From NCBI GenBank assembly GCA_964535025.1, contig CAZHRW010000149.1:11932-75931 (forward strand): a stretch of DNA of 64,000 nt, written 5' to 3'. The stretch comes from an uncultured Planctomycetales bacterium (GTDB taxonomy: Bacteria > Planctomycetota > Phycisphaerae > SM23-33 > FEN-1343). Made by a program: the position numbers and the translations under genes. Each line of letters opens with the position of its first letter. Position 1 is the first letter of the stretch. Positions 5,989 to 62,740 of the stretch are shown here, in pieces. The notes under the pieces are model-generated. The model worked only from the letters and a program-made list of their open reading frames with translations. It ran no database searches and was not told the origin of the DNA.

Positions 5989-7104
5989 GTGCCCAGCACG
6001 CATTGGAGAAACGAGGTCGTCCGTCGAGCCCGCCGGATCGTCGTAAAGGTAGGCACCTCGGCGTTGACCGACGACCGCGGGCAACTGGACGTGCAGGTGG
6101 TGGCGGATCTGGCGGCCCAGTTGGCGACCGTCATGCGCGACGGGCTGGATGTCACGCTGGTCAGCAGCGGCGCCGTCGGCGCCGGCATGGGCGAGCTGGG
6201 ACTGACCCGCCGGCCGAAGACGCTGCCGCTGCTTCAGGCGACCGCGGCGGTGGGCCAGGGGCAGTTGATGCGGCAGTTCCACGACGCTTTCGTGCCGTTC
6301 GACGTGAAGGTGGCCCAGATTCTCGTCACCCGCGGCGACTTCGAGAACCGTGCGCGCTATCTCAACATCCGCAACACGATCGCCGCCCTCCAGGACCTCG
6401 GGGCCGTGCCGATCATCAACGAGAACGATTCGGTGGCGGTCGACGAGCTGCGCTTCGGCGACAACGACATGATCGCGGCCCACGTGACGAACATGGTCCA
6501 GGCGGAGGTGCTGGTCCTGCTGACGGTGGTCGACGGGGTGCTGTCGGGCTCGCAGGTGCTCGACGTGATCGAAGACGCCCGGGCCGACGCCGCCCGCCTG
6601 CCCACCGGCGCCATCAGCCGATTGGGCTCGGGGGGCATGGGCTCGAAGCTCCACGCGGCCCACATGGTGACGGCGGCCGGGGAGGTGGCGATCATCGCCA
6701 ACGCCCGCACGCCCAACGTCCTCGGCCGTCTGCTGGCGGGCGAGAAGCTCGGCACACTGTGCACGCCGGGCCCCAACAAGCTGTCGGCCCGCCGCCGGTG
6801 GATCGGCCAGGCCTCCCGGGCCGCCGGGCGAATCGTCATCGACGCCGGCGCCGTCGAGGCCCTCCGCCGCAAGGGCCGCAGCCTGCTGCCCACCGGCATT
6901 ACCGCTGTGTCCGGCTCGTTTACCAAGGGCGACACCGTCGCGATCGTCGACGGACGCGGCAAGATCGTCGCGCGGGGGCTGAGCAACTACGACGTCGACC
7001 AGGTCGACCGGATCAAGGGCCTCAAGACCGGCCAGGTCGCCAGGGCCCTTGGTGACAAACCCTACGACGAGGTGGTCCATCGCAACAACATGATGATTCT
7101 CTGA
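5989..7104 (+). CDS. proB: Glutamate 5-kinase with C-terminal PUA domain
   Basis: VVKVGTSALTD...VSSGAVGAG...ENDSVAVDELRFGDND kinase motifs, plus a C-terminal PUA domain. GTG start after GAGAGGAAG, one gene downstream of the waaA stop. Confidence 0.9.
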   Translation: MPSTHWRNEVVRRARRIVVKVGTSALTDDRGQLDVQVVADLAAQLATVMRDGLDVTLVSSGAVGAGMGELGLTRRPKTLPLLQATAAVGQGQLMRQFHDAFVPFDVKVAQILVTRGDFENRARYLNIRNTIAALQDLGAVPIINENDSVAVDELRFGDNDMIAAHVTNMVQAEVLVLLTVVDGVLSGSQVLDVIEDARADAARLPTGAISRLGSGGMGSKLHAAHMVTAAGEVAIIANARTPNVLGRLLAGEKLGTLCTPGPNKLSARRRWIGQASRAAGRIVIDAGAVEALRRKGRSLLPTGITAVSGSFTKGDTVAIVDGRGKIVARGLSNYDVDQVDRIKGLKTGQVARALGDKPYDEVVHRNNMMIL

Positions 7105-29722: not shown

Positions 29723-29748
29723 GGCTTCTCGCTTGCCGGGCTTCGGGG

Positions 29749-29925
29749 CCCGGCTAAATTCTGTCGCCCCTTTGGGGCTTTGTGCGTAAACGGCGCTCCT
29801 GTCCGGGGACTGGCGCCCCCGGCTAAACTCTGTTGCCCCTTTCGGGGCTTTGTGCGTAAACGGCGCTCCTGTCCGGGGGCTGGCGCCCCCGGCTAAACTC
29901 TGTCGCCCCTTTGGGGCTTTGTCCC
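29749..29925. repeat. 70-bp tandem repeat (about 2.5 copies) inside the 388-bp atpD-atpC spacer; each unit contains CCGGGG(G/A)CTGGCGCCCCCGG
   Basis: Units begin at 29749, 29819 and 29889 (period 70, over 90% identical). Followed at 29956-29975 by the inverted partner CCGGGGGCGCCAGCCCCCGG. Extra direct repeats CAGCCCCGGAGGGGCGG lie at about 29930 and about 29998. Confidence 0.85.
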
Positions 29926-30109
29926 CGTCAGCCCCGGAGGGGCGGCGGAATTTTGCCGGGGGCGCCAGCCCCCGGAAAACGGCTTACGAACACGAGCCAG
30001 CCCCGGAGGGGCGGCATACGTTCCAAGGGGGCGTCAGCCCCCGCCCATCGTCTCCTTTCGTCGCCGCACGCTTGCGTCAAGGGCGGCCCGGGCGCGCGCG
30101 CCGGCTGAA

Positions 30110-32287: not shown

Positions 32288-32722
32288 ATGAGCCAGTTAC
32301 GCACATTGGGCTTCTTCGAAGCGGTGATCCAGACGACCCAGGAATGGATGGTCGAGCTGACCGAGCTGACCGGCCGCGCCGACGAACACAAGGCCTGGCA
32401 GATGCTCCGGGCCGTGCTGCACGTCCTGCGGGACCGGATGACCGTCGCCCACAGCGCCCACCTCAGCGCGCAACTGCCGACGATCATCCGGGGCCTGTAC
32501 TTCGAGGGCTGGCGGCCGGCCGAGCAGCCGCTCCGCCTGCGCACCCGCGCCGAGTTCATCACGGCGGTCAGCGACGAGTTGTCCGGCCACCCGGAGATCG
32601 ACCCCAACCAGGCCGTCGCCTGCGTCTTCCGGCTCCTGGCCCACCGCATCACCGGCGGCGAGCTGGACAAGATCAAGCAGTCGCTCCAGCCGGAGCTGCG
32701 GGCGATGTGGCCGACGGCGTGA
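32288..32722 (+). CDS. DUF2267 domain protein
   Basis: C-terminal GELDKIKQSLQPELRAMWP pattern typical of DUF2267. GGGAG RBS. Confidence 0.6.
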   Translation: MSQLRTLGFFEAVIQTTQEWMVELTELTGRADEHKAWQMLRAVLHVLRDRMTVAHSAHLSAQLPTIIRGLYFEGWRPAEQPLRLRTRAEFITAVSDELSGHPEIDPNQAVACVFRLLAHRITGGELDKIKQSLQPELRAMWPTA

Positions 32723-32855
32723 ACGGCGAATATCGAATATCGAACAAGGAATATCGAATATCGAAGTAGGCTGTCGCCCCAGGGCGCGTCAGCGGTCGTT
32801 GGCCGTTTGACTTCGACATTCGATATTCCTTGTTCAGTATTCGATATTCGCCGTT
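32722..32855. repeat. Long AT-rich imperfect inverted repeat (45-bp arms, about 42/45 complementary, 44-nt loop) built from GAATATCGAA units; candidate bidirectional terminator or processing hairpin
   Basis: Left arm AACGGCGAATATCGAATATCGAACAAGGAATATCGAATATCGAAG; right arm CTTCGACATTCGATATTCCTTGTTCAGTATTCGATATTCGCCGTT. Lies between the convergent DUF2267 and MarC genes. Confidence 0.6.
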
Positions 32856-33463: not shown

Positions 33464-33548
33464 CGTTCTTTTGAGACCTGAGACGTGAGACCTGAGGCCT
33501 GAGGTACGGCGAGGGCACCCCAAGCTTCACGTCTCAGGCCTGTCTTCC

Positions 33549-34685: not shown

Positions 34686-34789
34686 GATCGCCTTTCCTCG
34701 AAAGCCCGCCATTGTCCGCGGGCGCCCCGGCGTTTGCGCGCACGGCGATTCTACAAGGTGGGCCGCCGGCCGCAAGGGGGCGCCGGACC

Positions 34790-35626
34790 TTACCGGGCCG
34801 TCCGTCGTCCGACGCTGTCCGACCGGTCCGACCGGTCCGACTTGTCCGACGCGTCCGACTTGTCCGACTTGTCCGACGCGTCTGGTGGGTCCGACGCCTC
34901 CCGGATCCCCTTACACTGGGGATACCCCGAGCAGCCCCAGAATGCCTTGCCGGCGTGAGGGCCCTGCTTGGCGGTGCGCCGGCGCATCGGCTTGCCGCAC
35001 AGCGGGCAGGCGGGCGCATCCGCGGCGGCGTGGCGCGCTTCGGTCCGGGCGGCATGGAGGCGCTCGGTGAAGCCGCCCTGGTCGAGGAACTGGCGGCTCT
35101 GGGCTTCGATCTGCCGCCGCAGGAGATAGGCGGCCTGGTTCACGGCGCACAGCATGGCGTTCGCGGCCAGTTCCGCCTCGGCCTCGGCGACGAACGCCGC
35201 CAGGCCCGCCAGGCCCGTCAGGCGGATCGTCCCCGGCGTCGCCGGCGGGAGGTCGGGCGCGGCATCGTGTTTGAGCCGTTCCCGCATGGCGAGGGCCTGG
35301 GGCGACTCCTTGGGCCAGACCCGCAGGCCGTGCTGGAGGAGAAAAGTCCGATAGTCCTTGAGCAGTTCATCGGAGAGGCTGGCTCGCGCGACATTCGTGA
35401 GCTTCATCTCGGCCTTGCGGCTCGTGGCCGCGGCGCCGATGGCCTCGCTGATATTCCGCACCCCGCTCCGCGCCGCCTGAACCATCTGATCGTGCGTCCG
35501 CGACCGCTTCTCGATGAAACGATCGCAGAACACGACCGTCGCATCGTAAACGGCCTCGGCCACCTTGTAACTGCGAAGCCGCTCATAGCCCCCGTGCGGC
35601 AAGAGGACGGACTCATCGCTGGCCAT
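34790..35626 (-). CDS. Four-helix-bundle protein (Avd / 23S rRNA IVS family) fused to a helical suffix domain, a topoisomerase-type C4 zinc ribbon and a C-terminal Ser-Asp repeat tail
   Basis: N-terminus YKVAEAVYDATVVFCDRFIEKRSRTHDQMVQAARSGVRNISEAIG matches the four-helix-bundle family. CPLCGKPMRRRTAKQGPHAGKAFWGCSGYPQC is a Topo-I-type Zn ribbon. The tail SDPPDASDKSDKSDASDKSDRSDRSD is encoded by the GTCCGAC array. ATG start follows AGGGGAGCA; the track start is a TTG. Confidence 0.7.
   Translation of the reverse strand: MASDESVLLPHGGYERLRSYKVAEAVYDATVVFCDRFIEKRSRTHDQMVQAARSGVRNISEAIGAAATSRKAEMKLTNVARASLSDELLKDYRTFLLQHGLRVWPKESPQALAMRERLKHDAAPDLPPATPGTIRLTGLAGLAAFVAEAEAELAANAMLCAVNQAAYLLRRQIEAQSRQFLDQGGFTERLHAARTEARHAAADAPACPLCGKPMRRRTAKQGPHAGKAFWGCSGYPQCKGIREASDPPDASDKSDKSDASDKSDRSDRSDSVGRRTAR
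34807..34895. repeat. Array C: nine GTCCGAC heptamers at 9-10 bp phasing (inside the 3' end of the CDS; encodes the SD-x repeats)
   Basis: Counted directly: GTCCGAC gct GTCCGAC cg GTCCGAC cg GTCCGAC tt ... . Confidence 0.9.
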
Positions 35627-35671
35627 GGTAGTGCTCCCCTGCGTTTCCAAAGGTCAAGGACGGATCGACCT

Positions 35672-35753
35672 GTCGGACGGCGTCAGACGGGTCGGACAGG
35701 TCAGATGGGTCTGACGGTGTCGGACAGGTCAGACAGGTCCGACAATGTCGGAC
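35672..35753. repeat. Array A: nine GTC(N)GAC palindromic heptamers (mostly GTCGGAC/GTCAGAC) at 9-10 bp phasing, upstream of the four-helix-bundle gene
   Basis: Counted directly; opposite orientation bias to arrays B and C. Confidence 0.9.
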
Positions 35754-35861
35754 GATTTGGGCTCACGCGGCCCATCGGATATTGGACCCCTGCGGGGGAC
35801 ACCTGTCAAGCCGCGCCATAGCGGAAAAACCGCCCCCGAATCGTCCACGCGAGTCTCTGCT

Positions 35862-36016
35862 GTCCGACGCTGTCTGACCGGTCGGACGAGTCCGACCTGT
35901 CCGACGCCGTCTGACGCGTCAGACGAGTCCGACCCGTCCGACGCCGTCTGAGCCGTCAGACGAGTCCGACCCGTCCGACGCTGTCTGACCTGTCTGACGA
36001 GTCCGACCTGTCCGAC
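35862..36016. repeat. Array B: seventeen GTC(N)GAC heptamers with a regular 3-2-2-2 nt spacer pattern (37-bp supra-unit; one 36-bp block duplicated)
   Basis: Counted directly. The central base N is A, C, G or T. Not frame-preserving (supra-period 37). Confidence 0.9.
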
Positions 36017-36099
36017 GCCGTCCGTGCGGCGCGGCCGCCACCAATGGCTATAATAGCCAAATAAGGCCGCGCGTTCACGCTCGCGAGGGCGCGATGAAC

Positions 36100-36470
36100 A
36101 AAATGAAAGCAAACCACAACAAAATACGGCCGGCGCTCAATAAAATGAAGGCAGCGTTAAACAATGTGCACGACCGGCCCAATAAACTGACATATTCCCC
36201 CAATAAAAGAAAGCCCCGAGTCGCCCCGTGCGCGCCCCGGGGGTCTGGGTAAGCTGGGTAAAATATCCGAGAATTCGGGTTTTATGCCGGATGCAAGGCG
36301 CGCGCATCTATGTGGGGACAGGATATGAGAAAAAACCCCTCGGACGCACCCTCCGGCGTTAAGCTGGGCAAGCTGGGGGCTCTGCGGCGTCGCGGCGCCC
36401 GGAGAATTCGGGTTTTATGCCGTTAAACTGGGTAAGATACCGGAGAATTCCGGTTTTATGCCGTCTCGAT
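36100..36470. repeat. AT-rich noncoding island with several direct-repeat families: CAATAAA-type repeats, AAGCTGGGTAA-type repeats, and three copies of a 23-bp element CCG(R)GAATTC(S)GGTTTTATGCCG (short hairpin plus T-tract)
   Basis: Copies at about 36267-36289, 36398-36422 and 36439-36463. Local GC is far below the 70% background. No ORF with protein-like composition. Confidence 0.7.
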
Positions 36471-38161: not shown

Positions 38162-40459
38162 ATGGCGGAAAAATACCTCGAAGCGATTATTGAAACGCTG
38201 GCCGACAAGCATTATCAGCCGCTGAAGATGCGACAACTCGCCCGTCGGATGGGCGTGGCGGACAGCGATTACGCGGCGTTCCGGGACGCGGTCAAGCAGC
38301 TCAAGGACGCCGGTCGCGTCGTCTACGGGCCGAAGAACGACCTGAGCCTGCCGCCGATGCCCGAGCGGGTGGTGGGCGTCTATCGTGCCAATGCGCGGGG
38401 GTTTGGGTTCATCACCCCCGAGGAGCCCAACGCGCACGGCGACCTGTTCGTCCCCGCCGGCGACAGCCTGGACGCGATGACCGGCGACACCGTCGCCGCC
38501 CGCGTGGTCCGCGGCGGAAAGCGTGACGGCAAGCGGGTTTACCGCGGCGTGATCGTCGAGATCCTCGTCCGCGGGAACAACCGGTTCGTCGGCGAGCTGA
38601 ACCGCTCCAGCGACGGGAAGGTCTGGTTCGTCATGCCCCAGGGCCGCGGGTTTTCCGATCCGATCCTCATCGACGACGCCGGCCCGGCCGCCCGCGAGGG
38701 TGTCAAGGTCGTCGTCGAGATTATCCATTACCCCAGCGGGGCCGATCTCGCCCGCGGTGTGATCGTCGAGCAGCTCGGGATGGGCGGGCCGGTGGACGTT
38801 GAGACACTTGGCATCATCCGCGAGCACGGCCTGCCGGAGGTCTTCAGCGACGGCGCGATGGCCGACGCCCGCCGGGCCCTGGAGAGCTTCGACGCCGCGA
38901 GCGATCCAAGTCGCGAGGATTTAAGGGATTGGACGATCGTCACGATCGACCCCCCCGACGCCCGCGACTACGACGACGCGGTGTCGATCCACCGGCTGGA
39001 TAACGGCGGCCGCCGGTTGGGCGTGCACATCGCCGATGTGTCGCACTTCGTCCGCGAGGGTGCCGCCCTCGACGACGACGCCCGCGAGCGGGGCAACAGC
39101 GCCTATTTCCCCCGCAAGGTCGTGCCGATGCTGCCGGAGATCCTCTCCAACGGCGTCTGCTCGCTCCAGGAGGGCCAGGACCGCTTCGTCAAGACCGCAC
39201 TGATCGACTATGACCGCGACGGCCACGTCAGCGGCGCGCGGCTGACCAACGCGGTGATCCGCTCGTCCAAGCGGCTGACCTACCGCCAGGCGCAGGAAAT
39301 AATCGACGGTAAAATCGGCGGTTACGACAAGGCCGTCGTCGAGCTCGTCCGCGAGATGGCCTCGTTGGCGCGGAGGATCGAAGCCCGTCGTCGTGAGCAG
39401 GGGATGCTCCACCTGGACCTGCCGGAGGTGGAACTGGTCCTCTCGGACGAAGGGGGCGTCGTCGACGTCGAGGCCGCCGACGAGAGCTACACGCACACGA
39501 TCATCGAGATGTTCATGGTCGAGGCCAACGAGGCCGCCGCCCGCCTGCTGGAGGGGCTGAATGTGCCGTTCCTGCGCCGCATCCACCCTGACCGGGACGC
39601 CGCGTCCGGCAAGCACCTGGCCGAGTTCGTCCGCGCGTGCGGCTACCGCATCGGCCGCGACCTCAGCCGGCGGGACATCCAGGACCTGATCCGCCGCGTC
39701 CGCGGGCGACCGGAGAGCTACGCGGTTAACCTCGCTCTGCTCAAGACCTTCGAGCAGGCGGAGTACTCGCCGATGCGGATCGGCCACTACGCCCTGGCGT
39801 CGGAGTGCTACTGCCATTTCACCAGCCCGATCCGCCGCTACCCCGACCTGACGGTCCACCGGCTCATCGACGCCCACCTGCGCGGCCACCTCGATGTCGA
39901 AGCGGTCGACGTGGGCGAGACGACGGCGCTCGGCCGCCATTGCAGCTTCACCGAACGGCGTGCCGAGCGGGCCGAGCGGGAGCTGCGCAACCTGCTGGTG
40001 CTGATCATGCTGTCCGAGCGGATCGGGGAGGTCTTCGACGGGGTGGTCACGGGCGTGACCTCGTTCGGCCTGTTCGTCCAGTCCAGTAAGTACCTTGTCG
40101 AAGGTCTCTTGCGCCTGGAGGACCTCGGCGACGACTGGTGGGAACCCGACCCGCCCCGCGGGCAGGTGGTTGCCCAGCGGACGGGCAGGCGGGTCCGCCT
40201 GGGCGACCTGCTGACCGTGCGGATCGTCCAGGTTGACCTGGCCCGCCGTGAGATGGACCTCGCCGTCGTCGGCGAGATCGGCCGCCCGCCCGGCGCGCGC
40301 AAGGCCAAGGCGGACAAGGCCAAGGGGACCGGCAAGGCCAAGGCCAAGGGGGCCGACAAGCCCAAAGGGACCGGCAAGGGCAAGGGCCCAAAGCGTCCGG
40401 CGTCGGCCGTTGGTACGAAACGCCCCAAGGGGGGCGGTAAGCGCCGTCGGGGCGGTTGA
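38162..40459 (+). CDS. rnr: Ribonuclease R
   Basis: N-terminal HTH/cold-shock domains, RNB catalytic domain, S1 domain and a Lys-rich C-terminal tail. Confidence 0.9.
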   Translation: MAEKYLEAIIETLADKHYQPLKMRQLARRMGVADSDYAAFRDAVKQLKDAGRVVYGPKNDLSLPPMPERVVGVYRANARGFGFITPEEPNAHGDLFVPAGDSLDAMTGDTVAARVVRGGKRDGKRVYRGVIVEILVRGNNRFVGELNRSSDGKVWFVMPQGRGFSDPILIDDAGPAAREGVKVVVEIIHYPSGADLARGVIVEQLGMGGPVDVETLGIIREHGLPEVFSDGAMADARRALESFDAASDPSREDLRDWTIVTIDPPDARDYDDAVSIHRLDNGGRRLGVHIADVSHFVREGAALDDDARERGNSAYFPRKVVPMLPEILSNGVCSLQEGQDRFVKTALIDYDRDGHVSGARLTNAVIRSSKRLTYRQAQEIIDGKIGGYDKAVVELVREMASLARRIEARRREQGMLHLDLPEVELVLSDEGGVVDVEAADESYTHTIIEMFMVEANEAAARLLEGLNVPFLRRIHPDRDAASGKHLAEFVRACGYRIGRDLSRRDIQDLIRRVRGRPESYAVNLALLKTFEQAEYSPMRIGHYALASECYCHFTSPIRRYPDLTVHRLIDAHLRGHLDVEAVDVGETTALGRHCSFTERRAERAERELRNLLVLIMLSERIGEVFDGVVTGVTSFGLFVQSSKYLVEGLLRLEDLGDDWWEPDPPRGQVVAQRTGRRVRLGDLLTVRIVQVDLARREMDLAVVGEIGRPPGARKAKADKAKGTGKAKAKGADKPKGTGKGKGPKRPASAVGTKRPKGGGKRRRGG

Positions 40460-60836: not shown

Positions 60837-62675
60837 ATGTGCGGTATCGTCGGATACATCGGACGCAGGAAGGCGCAAGACATTCTAGTAGAGGGACTTA
60901 AGCGCCTGGAGTACCGCGGCTACGACTCGGCCGGTCTCTGCGCCGTCGCCGACGGCGCCCTGACGACCGCCAAGTGCCCCGGGCGGATCGCCAATCTCGA
61001 ACAGCGCCTCGCCGAGACGCCTGCGCTCGCCGACGCCACCATCGGTATCGCCCACACCCGCTGGGCTACGCACGGCTCGCCGACCGAGGCGAACGCCCAC
61101 CCGCACCTCAGCGACGACGGATGCATCTCGCTGGTTCATAACGGTATCATCGAAAACTACTTGGCGCTCAAGCAGTGGCTTCAGTCCAAGGGCCGCACCT
61201 TCGCCAGCGAGACCGATTCGGAGGTGCTGTCGAACCTGATCGCCGAGTTCTACGCCTCGACGGGCGACTTCGTCGAGGCCGTCCGGACGGCCCTGCACGA
61301 GGTGACCGGCACGTACGGGATCGCGGTGCTCTGTCGCGACGAGCCGGATACGATGGTCACGGCCCGGCGGGGCAGCCCGCTGATCGTGGGGATCGGCCAG
61401 GATGAATACATCGTCGCCTCCGACGCCGCGGCGATCGTCGCCCACACCGCCAACGTGGTGTATCTCCACGACAACGAGATGGCGGTCATCACCGGCGACC
61501 GGATGCGGACGATCACGATCGACAACGTCCCGACCACCAAGGACGTCGAGCTGATCGAGTACAGCCTCGAGGAGATCGCCCTGGGCGGGTTCGAGCACTT
61601 CATGCTCAAGGAGATCTTCGAGCAGCCCCAGTCGATTCGCGACTGCCTGCGCGGGCGACTGGACATGCGGGAATCGCGGGTGCAGTTGGGCGGCATCGAG
61701 TCGGTCGCCCGCGAGTTGATCCGGACCCGACGGTTCATCTTCACCGCCTGCGGCACCGCCTGGCACGCCGGACTGATCGGGGAGTTTCTCTTCGAGGATC
61801 TCGCCCGGATCCCGGCCGAGACGGAGTACGCCTCGGAGTTTCGCTACCGCAACCCGATCATCGACGGCGGGACGGCCGTGGTGGCGATCAGCCAGTCGGG
61901 GGAGACCGCCGACACGCTGGCGGCCCTGCGGGAGGCGCGGGACAAGGGCGCCCTGGCGCTGGGGATCGTCAACGCCGTCGGTTCGACCATCGCCCGCGAG
62001 ACCGACGCCGGCGTCTACCTTCACGCCGGGCCCGAGATCGGCGTGGCCTCGACCAAGGCTTTCACCTGCCAGGTCGCCGTCGAGACGATGCTCGCGCTGT
62101 ATCTCGGCCGGCGGAAGTTCATGTCGCAGGAGGTTACCACCCGCTACATGGAAGCCCTGGCCGAGATCCCCGACAAGATCGAGCGAGTCCTCGCCCAGAG
62201 CGACCGGATCCGCGACGTGGTCTCCCGCGTGGCCGGCCGGGAGAACTGGCTGTTCCTCGGGCGGGGCTACAACTACCCCGTCGCCCTGGAAGGGGCGCTG
62301 AAGCTCAAGGAGATCAGCTACATCCATGCCGAGGGGCTGCCCGCCGCCGAGATGAAGCACGGGCCGATCGCCCTGATCCACGAGGGCATGCCGGTGGTGT
62401 TCATCGCCCCGCGGTGCGGGGTGTATGACAAGATCATCTCGAACATCGAGGAGGTCCGCGCCCGCGGCGGGTACGTCATCGCCGTGGCGACCGAGGGCAA
62501 CGACGAGATCCGCCACTATGCCGACGCGGTGTTCTACATCCCCGATTGTCCCCAGGCCCTCCAGCCGCTCCTGACGGTCATCCCGCTGCAACTGCTGGCC
62601 TACCAGGCCGCGGTCCTGCGCGGGTGCAACGTCGATAAGCCGCGGAATCTGGCCAAGAGCGTGACCGTGGAGTGA
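60837..62675 (+). CDS. glmS: Glutamine--fructose-6-phosphate aminotransferase (isomerising)
   Basis: MCGIVGY N-terminal nucleophile and two SIS domains. AGGAGAG RBS. Confidence 0.95.
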   Translation: MCGIVGYIGRRKAQDILVEGLKRLEYRGYDSAGLCAVADGALTTAKCPGRIANLEQRLAETPALADATIGIAHTRWATHGSPTEANAHPHLSDDGCISLVHNGIIENYLALKQWLQSKGRTFASETDSEVLSNLIAEFYASTGDFVEAVRTALHEVTGTYGIAVLCRDEPDTMVTARRGSPLIVGIGQDEYIVASDAAAIVAHTANVVYLHDNEMAVITGDRMRTITIDNVPTTKDVELIEYSLEEIALGGFEHFMLKEIFEQPQSIRDCLRGRLDMRESRVQLGGIESVARELIRTRRFIFTACGTAWHAGLIGEFLFEDLARIPAETEYASEFRYRNPIIDGGTAVVAISQSGETADTLAALREARDKGALALGIVNAVGSTIARETDAGVYLHAGPEIGVASTKAFTCQVAVETMLALYLGRRKFMSQEVTTRYMEALAEIPDKIERVLAQSDRIRDVVSRVAGRENWLFLGRGYNYPVALEGALKLKEISYIHAEGLPAAEMKHGPIALIHEGMPVVFIAPRCGVYDKIISNIEEVRARGGYVIAVATEGNDEIRHYADAVFYIPDCPQALQPLLTVIPLQLLAYQAAVLRGCNVDKPRNLAKSVTVE

Positions 62676-62696: not shown

Positions 62697-62723
62697 ATCC
62701 GACGGATCAGTCTGATCCGACGG
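62697..62723. terminator. Hairpin (13-bp stem with one mismatch, TCCGACGGATCAG / CTGATCCGACGGA) between convergent glmS and GatB/YqeY genes; candidate transcription stop
   Basis: Read from the sequence. A T-tract lies 5' of the stem on the plus strand, so not a canonical intrinsic terminator for either direction. Confidence 0.35.
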
Positions 62724-62740
62724 ATCCGACCGATTACTCC

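Follow-up and report, generated by a model that had tools for sequence, protein, structure and literature searches.

A four-helix-bundle suffix protein gene and its associated nonamer DNA arrays in an uncultured Planctomycetales bacterium

The locus

A stretch of 64,000 nucleotides from an uncultured Planctomycetales bacterium (contig CAZHRW010000149.1, positions 11,932 to 75,931; this whole stretch is referred to here as the window, and positions are numbered from its first letter) carries a minus-strand gene whose product combines a four-helix bundle with a zinc ribbon and a tail of Ser-Asp (SD) repeats. Tandem arrays of a 9-bp unit lie within this gene and on its upstream side. The unit is the nonamer GTC-N-GAC-NN, in its wider form [G/A]TC-N-GAC-NN, and an array can be written (GTCNGACNN)n. 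The features of the locus are listed below (aa, amino acids), with the evidence for each in brackets.

34790 to 35626, minus strand: coding sequence of 278 aa plus stop, for a protein of the four-helix-bundle suffix family that carries a zinc ribbon and an SDx tail at its C-terminus (list of open reading frames, Pfam and NCBIfam matches)
35333 to 35593, minus strand: bundle helices 1-3, aa 12-98, including the R43-G55 run and the NIxEG motif, here NISEA (structural model, sub-threshold profile matches, conservation)
35177 to 35332, minus strand: insertion splitting the bundle between helices 3 and 4, aa 99-150 (structural model, mapping of coding arrays)
35018 to 35176, minus strand: the 'suffix', aa 151-203, with helix 151-183 as predicted bundle helix 4 and a further helix at 186-203 (TIGR04258, Foldseek)
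34901 to 35014, minus strand: Cys4 zinc ribbon of the Top1/GRF type, aa 205-242 (PF01396, invariant cysteines, Foldseek)
34807 to 34895, no strand: array a, 9 units of GTC-C-GAC-NN in plus-strand reading, in the tail of the gene (repeat mapping)
35672 to 35753, no strand: array b, 9 units with spacings of 9 and 10 bp and mixed central bases (repeat mapping)
35781 to 35809, minus strand: candidate promoter-like element TTGACA-N17-TCCAAT between arrays c and b (read from the sequence)
35860 to 36024, no strand: array c, 17 units with a 37-bp super-period of 9+9+9+10 (repeat mapping)
62697 to 62734, no strand: solitary 4-unit array of the variant GATCNG[A/T]C-N, intergenic, after a gene ending at 62675 (repeat mapping)

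The open reading frame (ORF) runs from an ATG at 35626 to a stop codon at 34790-34792, an alternative in-frame TTG at 35650 giving a product of 286 aa, and its translation contains both the Cys4 string and the SD[AKR] tail. An identical protein is present in a public collection (P0001). The protein is basic, with a pI of 9.3 for the whole and 9.95 for the ribbon.

Domain organisation and fold

The NCBIfam model TIGR04258 (4helix_suffix) matches along the whole model (positions 1-49) at aa 151-199 with 69.1 bits against a cut-off of 40 (E 2.2e-19), and the Pfam model Zn_ribbon_Top1 (PF01396) matches at aa 207-242 with 33.8 bits against a cut-off of 32. The GRF model of Pfam reaches 22.8 bits on the ribbon, under its own cut-off. 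The Toprim and catalytic core of a type IA topoisomerase was not found in the protein, the topoisomerase equivalog models scoring 11-15 bits, on the ribbon alone, against cut-offs of 456-930. Over the N-terminal bundle two further models fall short, TIGR02436 with 22.5 bits against a cut-off of 24 (profile positions 4-66 of 109) and PF05635 with 20.0 bits against a gathering threshold of 33.8 (profile positions 8-70 of 106), and both matches lie at aa 18-85 and take in the first ~65 profile positions only.

A single-chain AlphaFold2 model made with 58 aligned homologues has a mean pLDDT (predicted local distance difference test) of 80.7. It shows helices at 18-37, 43-65 and 70-98 at pLDDT 92-98, short helices at 109-118 and 142-148, then helices at 151-183 and 186-203 and three predicted strands in the ribbon at 213-243; the tail is disordered, with pLDDT below 50 at aa 248-270. 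The best matches to this model in the PDB by Foldseek are 2GSC and 2RLD, both solved members of PF05635, with a probability of 1.00 for their best chains; for chains A-D of 2GSC the template modelling (TM) score is 0.83-0.87 of target length at a root-mean-square deviation of 2.5-2.7. The 2GSC chains, of 110-117 residues, align over 164-169 columns of the model and run across the insertion, which indicates that suffix helix 151-183 is the fourth helix of a split bundle. In the predicted structure the 'suffix' would be this displaced helix and no extra domain, and the addition of a domain that a preliminary description of the locus had seen in it falls away. The failure of the bundle models to reach their cut-offs by sequence is put down to the insertion of ~50 aa that displaces helix 4. 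The bundle assigned in the preliminary description scores below the cut-offs of PF05635 and TIGR02436 and is clearly recovered when the predicted structure is superposed on PF05635 members; as a whole its domain calls (bundle, helical suffix, Top1-type ribbon and low-complexity tail) agree with TIGR04258, PF01396 and Foldseek.

The four cysteines of the ribbon (C207, C210, C232 and C238) are invariant in 58 sequences. Foldseek finds the ribbon similar to the GRF fingers of NEIL3 (probability 0.97) and a profile search of PDB sequences gave a weak match to the ribbon of TOP3A (E 0.014). With the ribbons of topoisomerase I and III-alpha and the GRF fingers of NEIL3 and APE2 the protein shares a PF01396 match above threshold, four invariant cysteines and a NEIL3-like fold, while it differs from the topoisomerases in carrying a lone ribbon with no Toprim or topoisomerase core, and in that the ribbon is absent from many array-bearing members of the family. 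Similarly, the protein resembles the TIGR04258/TIGR02436 and PF05635 families in its TIGR04258 score, in its superposition on 2GSC and 2RLD and in the helix-2/3 hallmark QxxRAxxS..NIxEG, and differs from PF05635 in that its bundle is split by an insertion, a zinc ribbon and a tail are added and the gene lies outside an rRNA intervening sequence (IVS). The function of the TIGR04258 and PF05635 families is likewise uncharacterised.

Conservation and spread of the family

Among 80 members of the family, which are 43-100% identical overall, the 13-residue run R43-G55 is at least 95% identical and H45, D46, D28, E61, E73, E87 and D91 are invariant. The glycine of NIxEG is present in at least 95% of these members; in the window copy codon 62 (35441-35443) encodes alanine, and the residue after A62 is isoleucine where the consensus has serine. 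The window copy shows five departures from the consensus of at least 90%, within the family range of 0-12. The gene is an intact, ordinary member of the very common, uncharacterised 'four-helix-bundle suffix' family.

A homologue search in a collection of 5.8 billion proteins, with 8,000 candidates scored, returned at least 7,998 protein clusters homologous to the window protein. At 50% identity the representative clusters number 7,120 at E 1e-3, 1,925 at 1e-10 and 180 at 1e-30. The best 120 homologues are full length, 73-82% identical and carry PF01396 in 118 cases; they come from Planctomycetes, Kiritimatiellia, Lentisphaerae and Terrimicrobiaceae, and the names given by the sources (NCBI, JGI) include 'four helix bundle suffix domain-containing protein'. 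The fusion of bundle, suffix and ribbon, which had been taken for something unusual, is the standard architecture of the family. The family is present in Planctomycetota, Verrucomicrobiota, Lentisphaerota, Desulfobacterota and other phyla, and in a set of contigs holding one genome per species relatives are encoded by at least 482 stretches, among them ones from Hydrogenedentes, Desulfobacterota, Chloroflexota, Nitrospirota and Acidobacteriota. Relatives of Akkermansiaceae, Opitutales, Geobacter and Victivallis also occur in this set. Many of these relatives stop after the suffix and have no ribbon. In a homologue from a cultured organism, Prevotella nigrescens (NZ_CP082843.1), a coiled-coil C-terminus replaces the ribbon; GTCNGAC is absent there, and four 9-bp units of the TTCCTAGGA type stand right behind the stop codon (6700-6745 of that locus, L201). 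Recent transfer had been considered on the strength of high identity between phyla and was withdrawn, as the adjoining GH172 gene is equally conserved (~75% across phyla).

The nonamer arrays of the window

Array a lies in the tail of the gene. In the gene frame, in which the unit is divided NNG|TCN|GAC and encodes x-S-D, it reads SDKSDKSDASDKSDRSDRSD, and a single 10-bp step in the array shifts the frame to a final SVGRRTAR and stop. The SD tail of the protein is the in-frame read-through of a DNA nonamer array, where the preliminary description had listed it as a feature of the protein. Array b occupies the stretch 46-127 nt upstream of the ATG, with the promoter-like element on its far side, and is in the SD phase of the ORF with a TGA in between. 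The 9+9+9+10 super-period of array c breaks every reading frame and this array is therefore non-coding. Array c is 78-83% complementary to array b and as single-stranded DNA it is prone to form hairpins (fold z-score -4.5); the leader gives a z-score of -2.5 against shuffles.

In the closest locus (L007), to which the nucleotide homology of the window reaches 35812, a TTGACA-N17-TTCAAT element likewise stands between two arrays, the order being array, element, array, ATG. The promoter-like element of the window fails a strict sigma-70 scan, and neither consensus promoter and terminator scans nor Rfam at a permissive threshold gave anything usable.

The concentration of the motif at the gene is pronounced, and the repeat arrays reported in the preliminary description are real. 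A two-unit pattern, GTCNGACNNGTCNGAC, occurs 20 times in the window, always within 34817-36016, against 0.00 occurrences in 100 shuffles, and 33 of the 46 GTCNGAC sites of the window fall in 1.2 kb. Outside 34700-36100 there are 13 GTCNGAC sites against 21.6 expected, which is not significant (z -1.7), and among the 16 palindromic XYNY'X' pentamers the strongest depletion there is that of TCNGA (103 against 172 expected), closely followed by TGNCA; avoidance of the motif outside the arrays is not supported.

Between array c and the next gene the DNA is AT-richer (36100-36461) and contains three minus-strand copies (36269, 36402 and 36443) of a 19-mer, GCATAAAACCNGAATTCTC, that occurs nowhere else in the window and is not in the closest homologous locus.

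Arrays across the gene family

Arrays of at least three units were counted at 81 copies of the gene, and 82 loci were scanned with Tandem Repeats Finder (TRF) blind to the motif. Within 250 bp of gene copies arrays are 54-fold denser than in the flanks (102 in 94 kb against 11 in 543 kb, or 1.09 against 0.020 per kb), and at least one is present at 59 of the 81 loci; the motif-blind scan finds period-9 arrays at 70 of its 82. All 100 arrays of period 9 with at least three copies fit [G/A]TC-N-GAC-NN, with positions 4, 8 and 9 free. Positions 1 and 3 had no part in the phasing; depending on location, the former is occupied by G or A in ~90-97% of arrays and the latter by C in 89-100%.

Arrays that are translated occur at three sites only, namely the insertion (window residues ~118-133), the linker ahead of the ribbon (~199-202) and the tail (from 244), and among 80 members 31 have one in the insertion, 20 in the pre-ribbon linker and 13 in the tail, with no coding array inside a helix or the ribbon. 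The insertion of the window copy is free of arrays. Upstream arrays stop 11-50 nt ahead of the start codon in most loci, and many relatives that bear arrays lack the ribbon. In other clades, units of GATCNG[A/T]C or ATANGAC are found at the equivalent sites and in another frame, giving D-x-T, T-D-x or Y-x-T, and GATCNGAC is a variant of the unit. The variant tracks the protein clade and not the GC content, and an asymmetric variant is found in both orientations.

Within an array the central bases are usually uniform, which indicates local expansion, and after one shared PAS-domain gene the arrays have 5, 8 and 19 units in three loci (L009, L017 and L010, respectively). Uniform central bases together with unequal copy number at orthologous sites indicate slippage. 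The central bases of 5' and 3' arrays are inconsistently complementary (G against G in L020, C against C in L002). Array lengths are identical in four samples of one Kiritimatiellia species. The arrays resemble contingency loci and the genes of Ser-Asp repeat proteins in being in-frame tandem repeats of variable copy number that encode a low-complexity acidic peptide, and differ in having a conserved six-base motif with free, wobble-like positions that is read in two frames and occurs equally in non-coding DNA; a contingency locus with strain-level length polymorphism was rejected, there being no variation among those four samples.

Constraint on nucleotides

In 330 SD units serine is never encoded by AGY, which accounts for 46% of serine codons elsewhere in the same ORFs, aspartate is GAC in 90% (54% elsewhere) and the codon before serine ends in G in 93% (34% elsewhere), while the first two bases of that codon, and hence the amino acid, vary freely. 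Among 120 homologous proteins the x of SDxSD could be encoded by NNG in 351 of 352 cases, when residues that cannot be make up 20% of the background. Depending on the frame, one and the same motif yields SDx or else DxT or YxT, and non-coding arrays bear the same motif as coding ones. Between orthologous 4-unit arrays of two loci (L014 and L016) nine of ten free positions differ and none of 24 motif positions. These comparisons show that the constraint acts on the nucleotides and not on the peptide, with copy number free and six motif bases conserved.

Arrays away from the gene

Metagenome contigs were also scanned array first, for five exact units, which gave at least 120 loci. By sequence clustering the gene family stands beside arrays at 10 of these loci and is by far their commonest neighbour, the next families reaching 3. 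No long SD-frame ORF contains 56 of the 127 arrays; a further 31 are placed at or ahead of an N-terminus, 26 make up C-terminal tails and 14 are internal. Three GyrA/ParC-like proteins on separate contigs (L092 319-370, L094 7375-7426 and L112 6688-6730) have acidic C-terminal tails encoded by GTCNGAC arrays, one of which reads SDESDLSDLSDASDVSDQSD, and in three contigs an array lies upstream of prmA. A 37%-GC metagenome contig carries, 5.5 kb apart, two copies of an element like a miniature inverted-repeat transposable element (MITE), with inverted ends of ~30 bp around 6 or 7 units that are all exact GTCNGAC or ATCNGAC (L125 4640-4960 and 10220-10440); the bundle gene is not on this 12.9-kb stretch. 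Some gene copies at the array-selected loci are frameshifted or truncated. In viruses arrays are rare (25 of 2.9 million contigs).

The only solitary array of the window, at 62697-62734, is of a variant that accompanies another clade of the gene family, unlike the GTCNGAC type found at the window gene.

Genomic setting

The bundle gene has as its neighbours a GH172 gene and a gene for a putative nucleoside hydrolase, which is named from reading of its ORF alone. Nucleotide homology between loci ends at the gene and its arrays, beyond which the neighbouring genes differ, and one Kiritimatiellia homologue sits between panC and purQ. The contig that is closest by synteny (GH172 89% identical) ends 261 bp upstream of GH172; the 3' end of the gene is not on it, and no more than two decayed units are. 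In two independent assemblies of this relative (L206 1-261 and L207 1-236) the ends fall within 25 bp of each other, ~250 bp upstream of GH172. In the window this is the site of the bundle gene, and the coincidence suggests that repeats caused the assemblies to break there. Synteny with the window is lacking in more distant GH172 loci.

Neighbours were surveyed as 138 ORFs from 72 related loci, matching 132 Pfam families of which the 25 commonest, each matching at least two ORFs, were examined. No partner gene is conserved across the 72 loci; the commonest neighbours are PAS (6), type I restriction-modification S subunits (5), R subunits (3-4) and N6 methylases (3). Defence models of PADLOC give 0 families at E <= 1 for the protein and it was rejected as a known defence protein, restriction-modification genes nonetheless being among its commonest neighbours. 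Homologues are absent from phage records, occur in plasmid records on one 568-kb Prevotella replicon and in viral contigs once in 2.9 million, and a reading as phage or plasmid cargo is not supported given that the family is almost absent from all three.

The reverse transcriptase (RT) and the pair of template and variable repeats (TR/VR) that belong to a diversity-generating retroelement (DGR), neither of which the preliminary description had seen within 15 kb of the gene, are missing from the entire window: no ORF has both the IGxxxSQ and YxDD motifs of an RT, and apart from local tandem arrays no direct or inverted repeat of at least 45 nt exceeds ~87% identity, so that there is no TR/VR-like pair. 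Nor does the window contain a paralogue of the bundle gene. The gene is a stand-alone chromosomal gene and not part of a DGR. By Rfam the window holds no rRNA, and the setting that gives PF05635 its name, the intervening sequence of rRNA, is ruled out.

Arrays as putative binding sites

We tentatively favour, at a probability of about one in three (roughly 0.35), the reading that the protein encoded among the arrays, which is basic and probably oligomeric, binds them as cis-acting sites on DNA. Binding at its own promoter and leader would bring about autoregulation, and solitary arrays elsewhere in the genome would be further targets. Slippage would lengthen and shorten the arrays, and within the gene they would persist only in flexible linkers that can accommodate an SDx, TDx or YxT peptide. 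A layout of phased short repeats on either side of a promoter and leader is classic for cooperative operator arrays, as in MetJ with its met boxes, omega with its heptads and ParR with parC, and it is the combination of an operator-like layout, a basic Avd-fold protein with a ribbon and hints of duplex DNA that favours binding sites. Duplex DNA is favoured over sense RNA by the asymmetric variant, which occurs in both orientations, and by the lack of complementarity between central bases of 5' and 3' arrays. The reading further draws on the 54-fold enrichment at the gene, on six motif bases that stay put as the free positions turn over, on the placement of arrays just ahead of the start codon and at three disordered coding sites, on the match between motif variant and protein clade, on the nucleic-acid-binding relatives of the protein (Avd fold, GRF ribbon) and on the rank of the family as commonest neighbour in the array-first scan.

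With MetJ (8-bp met boxes), omega (7-bp heptads) and ParR (parC iterons), too, adjoining units of 7-11 bp follow one another in phase, in either orientation, on both sides of a promoter, and met boxes (AGACGTCT) alternate GAC and GTC triplets as the arrays here do. Those three proteins are ribbon-helix-helix dimers with promoter-confined arrays of 2-10 units, and in contrast to the nonamer arrays theirs are not known from coding linkers or as dozens of dispersed copies.

Several points weigh against binding sites. About 90% of long arrays in metagenomes lie away from the gene, the family being present at 12 of the 120 array-selected loci, and a search with a hidden Markov model of the family for distant bundle genes beside solitary arrays found none beyond the same 12. 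Many of these arrays are in tails or linkers of unrelated proteins. In the motif-blind scan 12 of the 82 gene loci have no period-9 array, and the co-variation of motif and clade is likewise expected from plain co-inheritance. The one solitary array of the window belongs to the other motif variant. Operators within coding sequence are unusual, and to our knowledge PF05635 proteins are not sequence-specific DNA binders. Finally the R43-G55 run and the invariant H45, D46, D28, E61, E73, E87 and D91 look more like an active site than a DNA-reading surface. A role as a nucleic-acid-binding module tied to the repeat arrays, as the preliminary description had also proposed, is in our view a reasonable hunch.

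Alternative explanations

The principal rival, a possible one if doubtful, is that the arrays are autonomous, expansion-prone repeats, microsatellite-like or borne by MITEs, that have nothing to do with the role of the protein and pile up in plastic regions, often those of restriction-modification. Recombination between arrays would move, fuse and delete the gene and its modules, and the protein would act elsewhere, for example as a restriction-modification accessory. The small share of array-selected loci that hold the gene fits this explanation, as do the arrays in GyrA-like tails, upstream of prmA and inside a MITE-like element present twice, the slippage implied by homogeneous central bases and copy numbers of 5, 8 and 19 at orthologous sites, and the existence of frameshifted or truncated gene copies. 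It is also consistent with the position of arrays exactly at domain junctions, beyond which some relatives have no ribbon, and with the enrichment of type I and type IIG restriction-modification genes among the neighbours. Autonomous repeats leave unexplained that six motif bases are fixed across phyla, from 37% to 72% GC, while three free bases turn over, that arrays are enriched 54-fold at four separate sites of one gene family, and that no other family stands beside arrays in more than 3 of the 120 loci.

An unlikely alternative is a partnership of the kind formed by repetitive extragenic palindromes and their transposases (REP-RAYT), in which the protein would be an enzyme or recombination cofactor with the arrays as its substrate, the ribbon binding their hairpins or single strands, and would seed, expand or disperse them, preferably in cis. 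As with REP/REPIN and RAYT, a short (pseudo)palindromic repeat occurs in intergenic DNA, one conserved gene is flanked by it on both sides with further copies dispersed in the same contigs, and the variant tracks the clade. Top1 and GRF ribbons bind single-stranded DNA, and single-stranded arrays fold well (the z-scores of -4.5 and -2.5 above); the invariant block with its His and Asp/Glu residues may point to catalysis, and enrichment at each tolerated site near the gene fits action in cis. The arrays differ from REP elements in being head-to-tail 9-bp units instead of 20-40-bp hairpins, and in lying also in the gene, where they are translated. A RAYT is an HUH Y1 transposase, and no HUH/Y1 transposase family was found in Pfam, NCBIfam, PADLOC or PHROG scans of the protein, nor any nuclease or recombinase signature in the first three. 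Moreover the ribbon is missing from many array-bearing relatives, many arrays with identical central bases make poor hairpins, and active dispersal sits poorly with arrays that are identical in four samples of one species.

Less likely again is a role at the level of mRNA. An Avd-like protein would bind GUCNGAC repeats in its own leader and coding region to affect translation or stability, or 5' and 3' arrays would pair into a processed, IVS-like stem. Avd binds RNA in DGRs, upstream arrays end close enough to the start codon (11-50 nt) that most of them are probably transcribed, and the leader folds better than its shuffles. The asymmetric variant in either orientation relative to the gene speaks against such a role, as do the position of array c upstream of the promoter-like element and the lack of a match to any Rfam family, and the long-range stem is not supported, since the central bases of 5' and 3' arrays are not consistently complementary.

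The last alternative, that the protein is the accessory Avd of a DGR whose RT and repeats lie elsewhere in the genome, has very little in its favour beyond a fold shared with PF05635, whose member 2GSC is reported to be homologous to BPP-1 Avd (PDB 4DWL; review, PMC10053308), and the DGR reading is rejected on the absence of RT motifs, a TR/VR pair and a paralogue from the window and of any RVT family from the 25 commonest neighbour families at 72 loci. The homologue between panC and purQ and the conservation of the family as a single gene, far commoner than a DGR accessory would be, also argue against it. The label 'Avd family' in the preliminary description stands as regards the fold, by superposition on 2GSC and 2RLD, and fails as regards the features of a DGR; 4DWL itself is absent among the best 50 Foldseek matches listed. 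With bAvd (4DWL), Avd being a homopentameric barrel of positive charge, the protein shares a fold superfamily and basic character (pI 9.3), so that a nucleic-acid role is plausible, and it differs in being twice the size, with an extra ribbon and no adjacent RT, TR/VR or target gene.

Other repeats in the window

Two Acido-Lenti-1 motifs (RF01687) are the only gathering-level Rfam matches in the window. They form an inverted pair (29873-29918 on the plus strand, 51.5 bits; 29930-29975 on the minus strand, 41.4 bits) within a 70-bp tandem repeat of 2.5 copies and 94% identity in the region 29738-30043, with a diverged copy at 29998-30043. Two heptamer arrays of CGAATAT (~5.6 copies) at 32722-32855 lie between two minus-strand ORFs and make up a 46-nt inverted repeat, 93% complementary and 42 nt apart, and a further heptamer array (TGAGACC, 4.6 copies) stands at 33472-33503, directly upstream of a MarC-like gene. 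Overlapping tandem repeats with periods of 15 to 26 (consensus CAAGGCCAAGGGGAC...) at 40300-40401, near the 3' end of a plus-strand ORF (38162-40459), presumably encode a Lys/Gly-rich low-complexity tail.

Significance

A literature search found no description of the suffix family, of the nonamer motif or such repeats, or of an association between gene and arrays. The fusion itself is the family norm, and by this search it is the ensemble of gene and arrays that appears to be new. It is conceivable, though rather doubtful, that arrays and suffix proteins make up an unrecognised partnership of many phyla, in which a non-HUH protein of the Avd fold recognises dispersed [G/A]TCNGAC arrays and possibly maintains or spreads them, and in which arrays invade the gene of that protein and are co-opted as acidic SDx or TDx linkers and tails, for example in GyrA-like proteins. 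If real, this would place a dispersed-repeat system of a new kind alongside REP-RAYT and CRISPR; if not, the locus is a routine member of a named family.

The arrays show with unusual clarity how a signal in the nucleotides can override the choice of codons within a gene and be read in two frames. For annotation this means that in these phyla read-through of repeats may account for SD- and TD-rich low-complexity tails and for N-terminal extensions, and for metagenome assembly that arrays may break contigs. Few bacterial families that lack a known function outside DGRs are as common as the PF05635 or 'four helix bundle' superfamily, and a cognate DNA motif, if the binding-site reading is true, would be the first testable handle on it.

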